A stretch of DNA of 46,605 nt from an uncultured archaeon (GTDB lineage: Archaea > Asgardarchaeota > Thorarchaeia > Thorarchaeales > Thorarchaeaceae). The DNA is taken from assembly GCA_964473825.1 (NCBI GenBank), contig CAYYQL010000009.1:33499-80103 (forward strand), written 5' to 3'. The translations under genes were made by a program, and so were the position numbers. Shown one piece after another: positions 24,341-30,835 of the stretch; position 1 is the stretch's first letter; each line of letters starts with the position of its first letter. The notes under the pieces are model-generated. The model was not told where the DNA came from. It did no database searches and was given only the letters and a program-made list of their open reading frames with translations.

Positions 24341-25252
24341 ATGATACTCTCAGATTCACACAGGCGGCATCAAGGGGTTAGAAAACTGCCCGATCATAAC
24401 TATGCAAAACAGCTGGCAATGCGGTGGGGTATGAGAGCTCCGACGCAGCTTATCAAGATGCTAAGGTTGCATAGAACACCTTTCGAAACACTGCTTCACA
24501 ACATCTTTAATGCACTAGACCCCTATGATGCTTCATTTGCCTTTCCAACCGTTGCAGCAGTCGCATCGATGCGGCCCCATCTCGTGAAGGAAATTGTCCA
24601 AGAAGGGCACGAAGTCGCAAGTCACGGATACAACCATGTTCGTTACCCGCATCTATCGGCCAAGAATCGAGAACGCGACTTCATGAGAAGCCTCGAAACA
24701 TTCGATAAGATGGGCATCGAAATCCAAGGTTTCAGAGCGCCTTATGACAACTACACTGAGGATATGCCTGGGCTGCTTGAGAAGTACAACATCACTTGGG
24801 ACGGCGGCTTTGGCTATCGTCCTGAGCATAGGGAAAAGAATCACTTCTTCAGAGTCGCTCTTGATGGAAAGATGTCGGATGTCACCTACATTCCTTTGAG
24901 CATCTGGAGTGACGACCGGATGATTGACACACTTGAAATGCAGCCGACTGAAATGACTGAACAACTCAAGCATGAGATTCATACAGCTAAGAGGAATCGG
25001 GGAGTATTGATGTTCGACCTTCATCCTATTAGGATTGGTCAGCCCGACTATGTGCAATGCCTTCAAGATATAGCGGAATTCGCACATGGGTTGGGGGCCT
25101 GGATTCCTACACCTAGTGAGGCTGTGACCTACTGGAACCGGCACAGTAGATGGAGAGGAGACGCGGAATTCTGCCTGTTACTCACGGGTGACATTGATAA
25201 CTGGGTCTTCGCAGATTATCTACGTAGACAGATTTGGCGATGGATAGGATAG
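24341..25252 (+). CDS. Polysaccharide deacetylase family (CE4/NodB-like); start uncertain
   Basis: GHEVASHGYNH, GFRAPY, FDLHP, and an LTGDID motif at the C-terminus. Confidence 0.82.
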   Translation: MILSDSHRRHQGVRKLPDHNYAKQLAMRWGMRAPTQLIKMLRLHRTPFETLLHNIFNALDPYDASFAFPTVAAVASMRPHLVKEIVQEGHEVASHGYNHVRYPHLSAKNRERDFMRSLETFDKMGIEIQGFRAPYDNYTEDMPGLLEKYNITWDGGFGYRPEHREKNHFFRVALDGKMSDVTYIPLSIWSDDRMIDTLEMQPTEMTEQLKHEIHTAKRNRGVLMFDLHPIRIGQPDYVQCLQDIAEFAHGLGAWIPTPSEAVTYWNRHSRWRGDAEFCLLLTGDIDNWVFADYLRRQIWRWIG

Positions 25253-25259
25253 TGAACAT

Positions 25260-25709
25260 ATGGGTAAACTTCTTGGACGGTTACTGAGAGTTCTTGCATG
25301 GTTGTCACCAATCTATCAGTTCAGAGCCTCTGCACACAGGAAGTGCGGAGTCAAGATTGGTAAAGGAGTATTCATGGGCTATCTCGTGCAGATAGACAGT
25401 GAGCACCCGGATTTGGTCGAGATAGGAGATTGGGTTGCAATAGGTCCAGGTGTGAAGATCATGGCCCACGGAGGAGCGAGTGCATACCATCAAAAAATGG
25501 GTCTGTTCGAGGAGAAGCCAAATAAGGTGACCATCGAAGACGGTGCATGGATAGCAACAGGAGCTATCATCTTGCCGGGGGTTACAGTAGGTCGCGGAGC
25601 AGTGGTGGCAGCAGGTTCAGTCGTCAGCAGAGACGTACCACCCATGACAATGGTCGCAGGAAACCCAGCCAGGATGCTTCAGAAACTGGAGTCCAAAGCA
25701 ACTAAGTAG
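25260..25709 (+). CDS. Hexapeptide-repeat (LbH) O-acyltransferase
   Basis: GVKIGKGVF, VEIGDWVAIGPGV, VTIEDGAWIATGAIILPGVTVGRGAVVAAGSVVSRDVP...AGNPAR. Confidence 0.9.
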   Translation: MGKLLGRLLRVLAWLSPIYQFRASAHRKCGVKIGKGVFMGYLVQIDSEHPDLVEIGDWVAIGPGVKIMAHGGASAYHQKMGLFEEKPNKVTIEDGAWIATGAIILPGVTVGRGAVVAAGSVVSRDVPPMTMVAGNPARMLQKLESKATK

Positions 25710-25947
25710 CGAGTTTTCGGCGAAGAGCAGCCTTAACGTCGCCAACAGTCCACATCTCAACAACCTCTTCATCTTCGAAGAAGATATCAAACTCATTCTC
25801 TATCTCACTAACAAGAAGAAGATGTGCCATCGAATCCCATGGTTCATACTCTTTTCGTCTGATGTCATCAGATAGCTCCTCGGGTTCGATAAGCAGCACC
25901 TTAACCAAGATATCCGTAAGGCGTTCCTCGCTGTCAGCCATCTTCAT
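25702..25947 (-). CDS. Acyl carrier protein
   Basis: About 80 aa, very acidic, with phosphopantetheine site WDSMAHLLLVSEIENEFDI and TVGDV. Start is ATG 25947 (ATGA overlap with fkbH) or 25941. Confidence 0.9.
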   Translation of the reverse strand: MKMADSEERLTDILVKVLLIEPEELSDDIRRKEYEPWDSMAHLLLVSEIENEFDIFFEDEEVVEMWTVGDVKAALRRKLAT

Positions 25948-27776
25948 TCCTCGACCATCTCGATCCAGTCTGGAACTGGTATATCTTCTTTCTCGATATC
26001 CAGTGCCCATCTCGTGATTCCCTCTGAGTCCGTTCCAACTTCTTCAAAACCATGACGCTTATAGAAGTCCCTTGCGGGGGGATTCTTCTTTGTTGGAATG
26101 ACCTCACCAATGACTCTTCGCGCGTTTCTATCCCGTGCATAGGAGAGTATCTTCGATAGGAACGCTGTTTCCACAGACCGGCCAATGACTCTACAACTCA
26201 TCAGAAAGGAATCGATTATGCAGTCGTCATTCTCCATCTTCGTGATTGCTACACCTACAATCCCTTCATCGCCGAACTTGTCCTTCACAGCCATACTGAA
26301 GACCGCATATTCGTCAGACTCTCTGAACGATTCCACCTCTGCGTCAGTATACCGACGAGTTGTCAGGTTGAATTGATTGGTCTTCCCTATCAGTTGAACT
26401 ACTCGCGGTTTGCCAAAGTCATCAACTTGCTTCACATTCACTTTCAAGTCAAGCGTTCTAAGGAAGTCTTCCACGGAACCGGTCTTCTCTTCGAGTTCTG
26501 CCCTCTTTCGTTTCCCGACGTACATCTCTCCTCGTTTCATGTCTTCCCGTGTCAATGAAAGAACATCAAAGACCTTCAGATTCTCCAGGGTCTCTCGATA
26601 CAGCTGTGGGTTTTCGGGCATCTCTACGACCATCACCTCAGGCAGTGCCTGACGGACTTGGGCTCTCTCGTGAGGATTGTCATCCATGAATACCATGCTG
26701 TCAAGACCAATGTTAATCTCTTCAGCAAGTTCCATCATGTTCTGCGCCTTATTCTGCCAATTAATCCTGAATGCGGCGAAGTGTTCCTCTCTGAGAATCT
26801 GATGCGGATGCTCGCGGATGGGTTTCATCGCATCATCCCAGTTGTTCTTGCTGTTGATTGCCAGAATGACTCCCCGATTGTAGAGACCGAGTAGTGCTCG
26901 CTGGAAGTCCATGAATTCGACGCCGGGAGGGGTCGGTCCCAGACGTATTCCTTCGATTCCATCTTCTCCCACGACTCCACCCCAGAGGGTGTTATCCAGA
27001 TCAAGGACTATGCACTTCTTAGTCAAGCCCTTGAGGGCTCTAACATACCTCGCATACTCTGAGGCAAGAGAGGGCACGAAATCAGTGGCAAACATCACCG
27101 ACCCTCTGTAGTATGTCTTCCAGTCTACCACTCTCGACTTGCCATAGCCTCCACTAACAGAATCGAGGTCGAAGACGAAGACCGTCGAGTCGTCCCGAAA
27201 GACCCGCGCGAGTTTCCTGTTTGCCTCGTGGAAGAATCGACGAAGACCAATCTCTTCTTTGTTATCCACAACACCAAGAGGCGTAAACTCAGGAACAATG
27301 AAGTTGTTGACTAGCACGAGAGCGGATGCGTTGTTTCTCAAGGCCTCTACAATACTGACCAAATCATCAACCATATGCTGGAAATGGTCTTCACGTTCAT
27401 CATGACTCATCCTCACGAATCTCGCGGTGAACATGGCGTCAAGAAGTGAGGCAGCGTCCACAGCCAGAATGACGAGGTCCGGCTGATGCTGGTAGAGTGC
27501 CGAGTCAGTGTCCAATGCCTCCTGACGGAACACATTGAAGCCACCGACGAAGGTCTCAGGCTGAAGACCCATGAGCCTGACTTTAACATCAAGACACGCG
27601 GCAACGGGCTCCAAGGTGGATGACCCGATGACGGCTAACCGTATGGTCTTCTTCTCATCGTCTGACGGCTCAAGCTCAAGCTTCTGGATTCTCTTGTATG
27701 CACTCCAGAGGTCAAGGTAATTGTTCTCATCCTTGATCGACCCGAGAATACTATCTAGAGCATCAGAGCTGTTCAT
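25944..27776 (-). CDS. fkbH: FkbH-like HAD-IIIC phosphatase / glyceryl-ACP transferase
   Basis: KCIVLDLDNTLWGGVVGEDG, SKNN, INWQNK, FMDDNPHER, KTNQFNLTTRRY, DKFGDEG, FLMSCRVIGR, plus a long N-terminal extension. Confidence 0.93.
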   Translation of the reverse strand: MNSSDALDSILGSIKDENNYLDLWSAYKRIQKLELEPSDDEKKTIRLAVIGSSTLEPVAACLDVKVRLMGLQPETFVGGFNVFRQEALDTDSALYQHQPDLVILAVDAASLLDAMFTARFVRMSHDEREDHFQHMVDDLVSIVEALRNNASALVLVNNFIVPEFTPLGVVDNKEEIGLRRFFHEANRKLARVFRDDSTVFVFDLDSVSGGYGKSRVVDWKTYYRGSVMFATDFVPSLASEYARYVRALKGLTKKCIVLDLDNTLWGGVVGEDGIEGIRLGPTPPGVEFMDFQRALLGLYNRGVILAINSKNNWDDAMKPIREHPHQILREEHFAAFRINWQNKAQNMMELAEEINIGLDSMVFMDDNPHERAQVRQALPEVMVVEMPENPQLYRETLENLKVFDVLSLTREDMKRGEMYVGKRKRAELEEKTGSVEDFLRTLDLKVNVKQVDDFGKPRVVQLIGKTNQFNLTTRRYTDAEVESFRESDEYAVFSMAVKDKFGDEGIVGVAITKMENDDCIIDSFLMSCRVIGRSVETAFLSKILSYARDRNARRVIGEVIPTKKNPPARDFYKRHGFEEVGTDSEGITRWALDIEKEDIPVPDWIEMVEE

Positions 27777-28212
27777 CTTCGTCAACACTCCTCGTTGACA
27801 ATTCGGTTGCCATTCCGTTTAGTAGTTTGCGAATGTATTCGTCACCTAGGCTGTGACCAGCAGGAATGGCAAGGGCCACAGCCGCTGCGTAGTCGTGAGT
27901 GTGTGATAGACTTACAATCACTCGATGAGTGGTAAAAGGGTACTCAACACATGGCGCCCCACTTTCGTCACGCAGAATCTCAATCTCGTTCATTGATGTT
28001 CCGTGCCTGATACCTATTGCCTTCAAGACAGCCTCCTTCCCGGCGAAAGTCGCTGCAAGATGGGGTACAGGGTCAGAAAAGGCTCGGCAGTATTCTAATT
28101 CACGTTCTGTGTAATTCCGGGCATAAAACGAAGAGTCATCAGAAATGACTCGAAATCGCTTCAACTCGGTGATATCGACACCGAGCCCAAGACCATCATC
28201 AGACTGCATCAT
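27763..28212 (-). CDS. acpS: Holo-ACP synthase (AcpS-type 4'-phosphopantetheinyl transferase)
   Basis: GLGVDI, YTERELEYC, FAGKEAVLKA, EIEILRDESGAP, VSLSHTHDYAAAV. Start moved to ATG 28212/28209. Confidence 0.92.
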   Translation of the reverse strand: MMQSDDGLGLGVDITELKRFRVISDDSSFYARNYTERELEYCRAFSDPVPHLAATFAGKEAVLKAIGIRHGTSMNEIEILRDESGAPCVEYPFTTHRVIVSLSHTHDYAAAVALAIPAGHSLGDEYIRKLLNGMATELSTRSVDEDEQL

Positions 28213-29795: not shown

Positions 29796-30620
29796 CTAGC
29801 CGCTGACGCTGTGCTTCTCCTCAGAGTGGACAAGCTCTACTTCAACCGGTTGCGCCTTTCTAGGTATAATCTTACCATGGACCCAAATAGAATTTGGGGG
29901 AATCACTTTGTCTTTCGGAACTGTGGAGTTCGCGGCAATAATCACATCATCTCCAATCTGGGCACCGGGAAGAACCACAGCATTGGCACCGATCAATACA
30001 CGATCACCAATGGTGACTTCTTTGAGATAGAGGCCGCGTCCCTCATAGACATGCCCAGACACTATCGCGTCATAACCGAAGAAGCAGTCGTCGCCTATCA
30101 CAGTTCGTTCCGGATTGAAGAGTCGACCATTTCCAACAATTGTGTTCGACCCTATCTTTGCACCGAATAGGATGTGTCGTGGCTTTGTGTCGAGAAAAAC
30201 TGTAAAGAACCATGCGAAATAGGGAAACAGCACATAGTACACCTCGTAGAGCTCGTAGAGCAACCACTCCTCCGTCTCTATGGGATAGAATCCGTCAGGA
30301 AGGTCGGGTATGAGCCGACGAGAGAGCTTGAATAGAGCTAGAGTGAATCCTAAGAATAGTGAATATGAAATGAGCGTAATCGGAACAAAGAGCAGCAGGA
30401 ACCAGAATCGTTCATAGACAAACGTTGGTAGGAATGTCCCTAGAAACAGCTCGGCGTAGACAGGAAGGTCAGCGAAAATCCAGCCAAGTCCTCGAACCCA
30501 GACATCTATGTTGTTATACATTGCAAAGAGGAAGAAGAGTCCGGGGATGGATGCTAGTGTAAGACTGAGGAATATCGATAGCACCATGTAAGCAGAATAT
30601 GCAATAGACCGTGGTTTCAT
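29796..30620 (-). CDS. Membrane-anchored hexapeptide-repeat acyltransferase-like protein
   Basis: Several N-terminal TM segments, then LFGAKIGSN, TVIGDDCFFG...SGH, VTIGDRVLIGANAVVLPGAQIGDDVIIAANS. Start moved to ATG 30620. Confidence 0.82.
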   Translation of the reverse strand: MKPRSIAYSAYMVLSIFLSLTLASIPGLFFLFAMYNNIDVWVRGLGWIFADLPVYAELFLGTFLPTFVYERFWFLLLFVPITLISYSLFLGFTLALFKLSRRLIPDLPDGFYPIETEEWLLYELYEVYYVLFPYFAWFFTVFLDTKPRHILFGAKIGSNTIVGNGRLFNPERTVIGDDCFFGYDAIVSGHVYEGRGLYLKEVTIGDRVLIGANAVVLPGAQIGDDVIIAANSTVPKDKVIPPNSIWVHGKIIPRKAQPVEVELVHSEEKHSVSG

Positions 30621-30835
30621 TCGAAGACAGCTCTGGGTATGGTAGTCTTGTGGGGAGATTTGCACCTTTTAAGATATGCTGCATGACACATTGAATTCTG
30701 GCATTAGAGTTCAAGACGGTAAGATTCCTGCATGAGAAACAAGTTGCCACATGAGGTTCGTCAGACCGGCTACGCAGGGAGGATAAATATATAGAGGGCC
30801 TCCAATGTGCCCCCGTATCCTAGCTGAGCGTAAAG

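Follow-up and report, generated by a model that had tools for sequence, protein, structure and literature searches.

Thiotemplate chemistry usually belongs to the assembly of fatty acids, polyketides or peptides, and the question raised here is what it may do at a locus where AcpS, FkbH and a stand-alone acyl carrier protein (ACP) are encoded beside a deacetylase and a small acyltransferase in an Asgard archaeon. The window analyzed is a stretch of 46,605 nucleotides, C9:33499-80103 (contig CAYYQL010000009.1) of the Thorarchaeal metagenome-assembled genome (MAG) G000, which is 3.27 Mb long and 95.7% complete with an estimated contamination of 4.4%. Positions 24341-28212 of the window are a five-gene cassette of two convergent halves, the plus strand encoding the CE4 deacetylase PDA303 and the left-handed beta-helix (LbH) acyltransferase LbH149 and the minus strand encoding AcpS, FkbH and ACP. 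The original prediction, made from the letters of the window, described the latter three (25702-28212) as a complete glyceryl-ACP system. This acpS-fkbH-ACP unit is real, complete and self-contained, lies at those positions and has intact catalytic residues; the functional unit is wider than these three genes, but narrower than the flanking set that had been drawn in around them. The original interpretation is supported in part, and we put at about even the chance that glyceryl-S-ACP is the donor acylating a cytoplasmic sugar precursor deacetylated by the CE4 enzyme.

AcpS (27763..28212, minus strand; 149 aa) is a group I phosphopantetheinyl transferase starting at ATG 28212, the listed open reading frame (ORF) reaching to TTG 28278. 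It scores 57.6 bits against PF01648 (cut-off 25) and 62.4 bits against TIGR00516 (cut-off 59.8), aligns with B. subtilis AcpS structures, and keeps D35, E82 and K86 invariant across 16 orthologues. FkbH (25944..27788, minus strand) is of the long form, composed of FkbH_N, a HAD-IIIC phosphatase and a GNAT-like C-terminal domain. Its TIGR01686 score is 314.7 bits, against a cut-off of 146.65, and 316.8 bits in a whole-genome profile search, which identified it as the sole FkbH of G000; its N-terminal and HAD domains match PDB 3slr at 1.4e-55. Among 28 sequences, down to 27% identity, D263, D265, S313, K347, D369, D370 and the S531-C532-R533 motif are invariant and T267 of the DLDNT motif is at least 90% conserved. 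Cys532 is presumably, from what is known of the family, the cysteine that carries the glyceryl group.

The ACP (25702..25947, minus strand; 81 aa) starts at ATG 25947, with the listed ORF reaching to 26010, and has its phosphopantetheine (Ppant) serine in a WDSM motif. Although it falls below the cut-off of every NCBIfam ACP model, it is nevertheless classed as a putative ACP by its serine motif, its matches to solved ACPs and its gene context: solved ACPs match it at E = 1e-5, with WDS placed on the DSL serine of B. subtilis ACP, and 15 of 16 orthologues have the WDS(M/L) motif. The exception (L026:8931-9149; G017:C218) reads WDAM, with alanine in place of the Ppant serine, in a cassette which otherwise looks intact. 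The ACP start codon overlaps the FkbH TGA stop (ATGA), so that the two genes are translationally coupled, and FkbH, starting at GTG 27788 or ATG 27776, overlaps the AcpS stop by 26 or 14 nt. In the whole of G000, the sole PP-binding and sole ACPS matches are the cassette ACP and AcpS.

The boundaries of the cassette are given by the loci that lack it. The GGR-like gene, present in 41 of 41 family genomes, was used to fetch the corresponding loci from 14 genomes without FkbH. All 14 lack exactly five genes, those for the CE4 deacetylase, LbH149, ACP, FkbH and AcpS, and all 14 retain the 303-aa gene, the helicase, the membrane LbH and the GGR-like gene in place. The flanking LbH acyltransferases and the deacetylase had all been proposed to act with glyceryl-ACP; the CE4 deacetylase and LbH149 do co-vary with the three-gene unit, whereas the membrane LbH stays in every cassette-less locus and, together with the helicase and the GGR-like gene, was rejected as a cassette partner for this reason. 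Across the family, ACPS and FkbH matches occur together in 34 genomes and are both absent from 36. Of the six genomes that depart from this pattern, one has a paralogue, one has a weak match, and the others are truncated at contig ends, which was checked directly for G165.

Within the family, the cassette is ancestral and dispensable. In one genome (L031:6649-7213; G022:C7), a 134-aa piece of the deacetylase and an AcpS-like fragment lie between the 303-aa gene and the helicase, and FkbH, ACP and LbH149 are gone, whereas other members of the same genus have the full set; this is cassette decay in progress, and such remnants argue that the cassette was present ancestrally and lost repeatedly. 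In a tree built from five flanking genes of 25 genomes, presence and absence of the cassette require at least five changes, at least three of them forced by well-supported branches. Thorarchaeal FkbH proteins form one clade, and its supported subclades are those expected from the flank tree. Most simply, the cassette was inserted once in an ancestor, where two convergent genes met, and was then lost repeatedly.

The gene families of the cassette are typically bacterial, and with 4.4% estimated contamination of the MAG, bacterial contamination or a chimeric assembly could be supposed as the source of the segment. The probability of this is negligible. GC content is 0.48-0.50 with no step across the cassette region, and the flanks contain Asgard signature genes, among them those for a gelsolin-like protein and a propeller-Rab-like GTPase. 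The FkbH phylogeny is in agreement with that of the flanking genes, and the cassette site is found between the same neighbors in 10 other family genomes, in the order HMGR_N-domain protein, 303-aa gene, CE4 deacetylase and LbH149, then in convergent orientation ACP, FkbH, AcpS, helicase and membrane LbH, and beyond these, divergently, the GGR-like reductase and three paralogous genes. FkbH is present in 16 of 36 same-family genomes in a first sample and 38 of 76 in a second, with 59-93% identity; the orthologues are labeled Candidatus Thorarchaeota at NCBI, where they are annotated only as 'HAD-IIIC family phosphatase'. As carriers include a single-contig assembly (G026) and a 1.55-Mb contig (G021), and the same site recurs in 10 genomes including these, a misassembled bacterial fragment, which the original prediction had named as a finding that would refute it, is excluded by synteny together with the flat GC: the cassette DNA is native Thorarchaeal. 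Synteny across archaea was likewise proposed earlier as a check; the five genes occur together in about half of the family and, with another gene order, in the Asgard families f22 and f27 and in a Bathyarchaeum-like contig.

The plus-strand half begins with PDA303 (24341..25252), a predicted deacetylase of the CE4 / NodB fold with a PF01522 score of 51.2 bits (threshold 23.1), whose true start is possibly 20-30 codons (approximately) downstream of the listed one. Invariant residues in 17 orthologues are H95, H99, R132-P134-Y135, D191-D192, D226-H228 and T282-G283-D284-I285-D286, so that the catalytic set (H95, H99, R132, H228 and the TGDID motif) is intact. The motif-1-like TGDID (282-286) is C-terminal, after the H-x3-H, RxPY and D-x-H motifs, an order that fits a circular permutation of the NodB fold. 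The AlphaFold model (pLDDT 87) is matched by CE4 structures at TM 0.61-0.67; the best matches are the PuuE-type CE4 enzymes 3cl6, 3rxz and HP0310, and ArnD, a deformylase acting on a lipid-linked amino sugar, matches too.

LbH149 (25260..25709, plus strand; 149 aa) is a small left-handed beta-helix acyltransferase with a Hexapep score of 48.3 bits. Its nearest solved relatives are maltose and galactoside O-acetyltransferases (MAT and GAT), its model (pLDDT 87) matches VCA0836, MAT and GAT at TMq 0.70-0.78, and H70 and a basic N-terminal motif are invariant among orthologues. No signal peptide or transmembrane segment was found in any of the five cassette proteins, all of which look cytoplasmic.

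Taken together, these functions would form a short cytoplasmic pathway. By family homology, AcpS would use CoA to convert the cassette ACP to the holo form. FkbH would load 1,3-bisphosphoglycerate (1,3-BPG) onto Cys532, its HAD domain would remove the 3-phosphate, and the glyceryl group would pass to the ACP thiol. The characterized FkbH/OzmB mechanism follows this course, from 1,3-BPG through glyceryl-S-enzyme to glyceryl-ACP (PMC9057759; PMC7489565). The next two steps are proposed from gene association: the CE4 enzyme would de-N-acetylate an N-acetyl amino sugar precursor linked to a nucleotide or to polyprenyl phosphate, and LbH149, the module's sole transferase, would move glyceryl from glyceryl-S-ACP to the sugar, in the simplest case to the amine exposed by deacetylation. 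A sugar bearing a glyceroyl group, destined for a surface glycan, would result. N-glyceroyl sugars exist, nonulosonic acids among them, and for a bacterial glycan the genetics of N-glyceroyl modification was described as a 'major challenge' as late as 2017 (PMC5378307).

The relatives of LbH149 use acetyl-CoA on hydroxyls, so that ester formation and plain acetylation stay live rivals to transfer onto the amine. In the first of these, LbH149 would esterify a sugar hydroxyl from glyceryl-ACP and the CE4 enzyme would act separately on the same glycan, for example by freeing an amine. LbH149 is indeed closest in sequence and fold to MAT, GAT and WcaF-type O-acetyltransferases, and the gene content needed is the same as for N-acylation. 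However, histidine-based LbH enzymes acylate both amines and hydroxyls, so the fold does not decide between N and O, and O-glyceroylation gives no reason for the tight coupling of deacetylase and carrier in four archaeal lineages; we regard it as unlikely, though worth keeping in mind. N-acylation from glyceryl-S-ACP has to be weighed also against the second rival, in which LbH149 is a plain acetyl-CoA acetyltransferase acting on a sugar or on the glyceryl hydroxyl, and glyceryl leaves the ACP through an enzyme encoded elsewhere.

All the nearest characterized LbH relatives use acetyl-CoA, and a glycerate-derived hydroxyl is acetylated in tetronate pathways (PMC7489565), as this rival requires. 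On the other side, none of the other transferases co-varies with the cassette, whose absence leaves the membrane LbH and the other neighbors in place; KS (ketoacyl synthase), Condensation and MBOAT have no match in the genome; and in other lineages it is just the five genes that come together. Plain acetylation is improbable, in our judgment. The searches were made with whole-genome profiles in G000, where, at 95.7% completeness, neither Condensation nor MBOAT (PF03062) had a match and the KS profile PF00109 gave only weak partial matches (at most 34 bits, over 58-64 profile positions), as it did in four archaeal control genomes. In the window, no FabH-like, polyketide synthase (PKS)/KS or Condensation gene is present. 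The earlier remark that the window holds no KS, nonribosomal peptide synthetase (NRPS) or MBOAT partner thus extends to the genome, apart from the weak partial KS matches, and uses of the ACP for polyketides, for tetronates, as an NRPS starter or in a Dlt-like route are excluded.

The accompanying generalization, that archaea generally lack ACP and AcpS, is weaker inside Asgard, as an ACPS domain is present in 106 of 301 Asgard genomes, in many at the end of frames of approximately 3,300-3,800 aa. The search of the four control genomes found no carrier-protein (thiotemplate) chemistry. One such frame (L142:1588-12975, 3,795 aa; G219:C1, a closed 4.4-Mb Asgard genome of family f24) has NMO/ER-like, KS, AT, two ACP, KR and PKS-DH domains and a C-terminal phosphopantetheinyl transferase (PPT) domain, and is by this predicted content a type I fatty acid synthase/PKS-like megasynthase. 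Similar frames were seen in families f5, f9, f14, f26 and f27, and a literature search on Asgard megasynthases found no Asgard paper. No megasynthase was found in G000. Derivation of the cassette AcpS from an Asgard megasynthase PPT domain was considered and rejected, since identity is 29% over 100 aa and G000 has no megasynthase.

Outside the Thorarchaeal family, the five genes come together again. TIGR01686 matches occur in 66 of the 301 Asgard genomes. In families f22 and f27, genes for PDA, AcpS, FkbH and ACP follow one another in one orientation with the LbH149 orthologue adjacent; identities to the window are 43-46% for FkbH, 54-56% for LbH149 and 44-48% for the deacetylase, and the surroundings differ, with no helicase or GGR-like gene. 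AglB/STT3 is encoded directly upstream of the module in f22. In a library of 1.84 billion representative proteins, the best non-Thorarchaeal match of FkbH is the f22 orthologue, and for the next match a second homology search gave Promethearchaeota, Helarchaeota and Bathyarchaeum as the nearest named kin.

Metagenomes were scanned with an archaeal FkbH alignment as the query, and the flanks were scored with hidden Markov models built from the cassette proteins. In the flanks of 80 FkbH loci, partners were ACP (70), AcpS (31), VOC (27), LbH149-like proteins of at least 100 bits (14) and strong PDA303-like proteins of at least 300 bits (4). LbH149 orthologues adjoin FkbH also in L062, L063, L065 and L119. 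In L062, whose FkbH is 85% identical to a Bathyarchaeum FkbH, AcpS, FkbH and ACP face LbH, PDA and VOC, and a PF00953 GPT-type transferase and a UDP-sugar dehydrogenase follow. In the marine variant L090, a CE4(DUF3473)-LbH pair faces FkbH, ACP, VOC and AcpS in a cluster with GT1, GT2, a sugar nucleotidyltransferase, methyltransferases and two genes of the NDP-sugar dehydratase/epimerase family (4,6-dehydratase-type). Since the five genes re-cluster across lineages they are a recurrent module, and its informative contexts are those of glycan biosynthesis.

These contexts bear on whether the acceptor is a sugar at all. The end product could instead be small and soluble, for example a metabolite, solute or signal derived from glycerate, and the CE4 enzyme a hydrolase of a small amide; PuuE-type enzymes, which the CE4 model most resembles, have small-molecule substrates, and secretion and membrane signals are absent. 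We see only a slim chance of this, as genes of glycan biosynthesis surround or adjoin the variant and orthologous modules and the cassette has no condensing, ligating or export gene.

A second alternative, in which the target is a membrane lipid, that is, the head group of archaeol or polyprenol or a glycolipid, is suggested by the Thorarchaeal neighborhood, with its GGR-like, HMG-CoA-reductase-N-domain, polyprenyl synthase and UbiA genes, and by sub-threshold matches of both LbH proteins to heptaprenylglyceryl-phosphate O-acetyltransferase. The latter (NF058585, 59-70 bits) are far under the cut-off of 300. The lipid-type neighbors stay when the cassette is absent, and the module of f22, f27 and the Bathyarchaeum-like contig has glycosylation genes for neighbors instead of them; this persistence and this absence make a lipid target less likely, and we consider it quite improbable. 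For the glyceryl-S-ACP pathway, we infer that glyceryl is the acyl group and that a glycan rather than a lipid is the target, the gene context in other lineages favoring a glycan precursor.

Several observations weigh against the acylation of a deacetylated sugar by glyceryl-S-ACP. The ACP scores 18.7 bits against PP-binding (PF00550), under the gathering score of 20.8. LbH149 has as its kin, both by sequence and by structure, acetyl-CoA-dependent sugar O-acetyltransferases, not acyl-ACP users or N-acyltransferases. The PuuE-like structural neighbors of PDA303 include an allantoinase, and as its nearest structures are PuuE-like, the substrate of the deacetylase need not be a sugar. The neighbors in Thorarchaeia are isoprenoid and lipid genes rather than glycosylation genes, and the glycan context in f22 is that of one genus only, among housekeeping genes. 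The Thorarchaeal cassette is without the VOC partner seen elsewhere. Finally, we know of no archaeal glycan with a glyceroyl group.

The VOC gene, of the Glyoxalase_4 type, is found with the f22, f27, Bathyarchaeum-like and marine-variant modules (L046:11425-11832, L051:5044-5460, L062:10523-10921 and L090:8891-9322), following the LbH gene in the annotated f22 and f27 loci, and VOC-FkbH-ACP triads are common among the metagenome loci. The module VOC proteins, 42-57% identical among themselves, might be thioester epimerases or isomerases. The sole Glyoxalase_4 gene of G000 (C9:9576-9908) was rejected as the missing VOC, with 30-36% identity to the module VOCs; it is probably a housekeeping epimerase.

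A second, divergent type of Asgard FkbH (27-31% identity; L023, L024, L053-L056) forms a separate clade, with some members in Thorarchaeia, and has no ACP, AcpS, LbH or CE4 gene adjacent. In G007, the gene for the second type (C32:12338-13858) lies on the same contig as a NeuB gene, 17 kb away.

The membrane-anchored LbH protein (29796-30665), which adjoins the helicase, is kept in 22 of 24 family loci with or without the cassette; no match was found in the cassette-bearing loci L022 and L026. It is tandemly duplicated in some loci (L016:12924-14691; L035:3784-5526) and has a sub-threshold match to TIGR02353, a model for the terminal domain of the Pls/PosA-family NRPS.

The donor half of the cassette resembles known FkbH loaders. 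The FkbH/OzmB enzymes for methoxymalonyl-ACP in FK520 and oxazolomycin biosynthesis share the HAD DxDxT core, the C-terminal cysteine domain and an adjacent dedicated small ACP, but OzmB is of the short form (366 aa), without FkbH_N (PMC9057759), whereas the cassette FkbH is of the long form with FkbH_N. In addition, methoxymalonyl-ACP pathways continue through two dehydrogenases and an O-methyltransferase to a PKS, and the cassette encodes none of these. The glycerate-utilization operon of tetronate biosynthesis shares the long-form FkbH (approximately 600 aa or more) followed by a small ACP (PMC7489565), and the FkbH of a tetronate-type operon on the Methylosinus trichosporium plasmid pOB3b3 is 36% identical to that of the cassette. 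The tetronate operon has a FabH-like KSIII, an E2-like acyltransferase and a hydrolase; in their place, the cassette has AcpS, a CE4 deacetylase and an LbH acyltransferase.

A precedent for the acceptor half is found in C. jejuni, where flagellin carries 2,3-di-O-methylglyceroyl pseudaminic acid (cj1295), so that a glycerate-derived acyl group replaces N-acetyl, as we propose for the cassette. Deacetylation of the pseudaminic acid 5-N-acetyl group followed by methylglyceroyl substitution has been proposed there (PMC3068675), and the glycosylation locus contains an fkbH-domain gene, cj1302 (PMC7099621). The two systems differ in that the C. jejuni one is bacterial, with a proposed aminopeptidase-like deacetylase and a nonulosonic acid as the acceptor, whereas the cassette has a CE4 enzyme and NeuB is often absent from its hosts.

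The same order of events is known from lipid A and Nod factor synthesis. LpxC/LpxD and NodB/NodA with NodF de-N-acetylate the sugar and then N-acylate it from acyl-ACP; LpxD is an LbH enzyme and NodB a CE4 enzyme. The likeness to LpxC/LpxD and NodB/NodA is one of working logic, not of family membership, as no cassette score is near the respective cut-offs; PDA303 has a weak NodB match (TIGR04243, 31 bits). The acyl group also differs, a fatty acid in the Lpx and Nod systems and, as predicted, a C3 hydroxy acid in the cassette.

Dlt-like MBOAT modules of candidate phyla radiation and other bacteria share the use of FkbH and ACP as the acyl donor in a polysaccharide locus. In that route, a membrane MBOAT acylates the polymer outside the cell, whereas G000 has no MBOAT match and the cassette proteins look cytoplasmic. 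A Candidatus Falkowbacteria locus (L045:140-7208; JAZDLN010000033.1) encodes, in order, MBOAT, a further gene, FkbH (42% identity), ACP, a MaoC dehydratase, an SDR, an FkbM methyltransferase, GT10 and a flippase, and is a Dlt-like arrangement, with probable tailoring of the C3 acyl group on the ACP.

A nonulosonic acid as the general acceptor was rejected, since no more than 19 of 77 family genomes have a NeuB match and many high-quality cassette-bearing genomes lack one, among them G002, G005, G006, G014 and the single-contig G026. G000 itself has two NeuB-type genes, one of which (C5:82918-83630) appears split, with profile positions 1-193 and 192-241 in two neighboring frames, perhaps through a frameshift or an error of assembly.

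FkbH, ACP and AcpS are known families. The novelty lies in their association with a CE4 deacetylase and a small LbH transferase, in the lack of an assembly line, and in a host range of several Asgard lineages and a Bathyarchaeum-like contig. A literature search returned nothing relevant on FkbH in archaea or in polysaccharide contexts, in agreement with the original view that no such archaeal system had been characterized. A broader proposal, in which this is a widespread archaeal pathway of Thorarchaeia, other Asgard lineages and Bathyarchaeia whose carrier protein serves solely to swap the N-acetyl group of a sugar precursor for glycolytic glycerate, giving N-glyceroyl surface or N-linked glycans, is put forward tentatively, as we would sooner expect it to fail than to hold.

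The sole ACP and phosphopantetheinyl transferase of G000 serve a deacetylase/acyltransferase module, which points to cytoplasmic decoration of a sugar with a glycolysis-derived C3 acid. If the broader proposal is true, the pathway would be the first carrier-protein-dependent route of sugar tailoring described in archaea, and it would give a general answer to how N-glyceroyl sugars are made; the module, consisting of five soluble proteins, is easy to reconstitute. Its conservation across lineages, together with its frequent loss, would suit a variable surface trait in sediment archaea related to the ancestor of eukaryotes.

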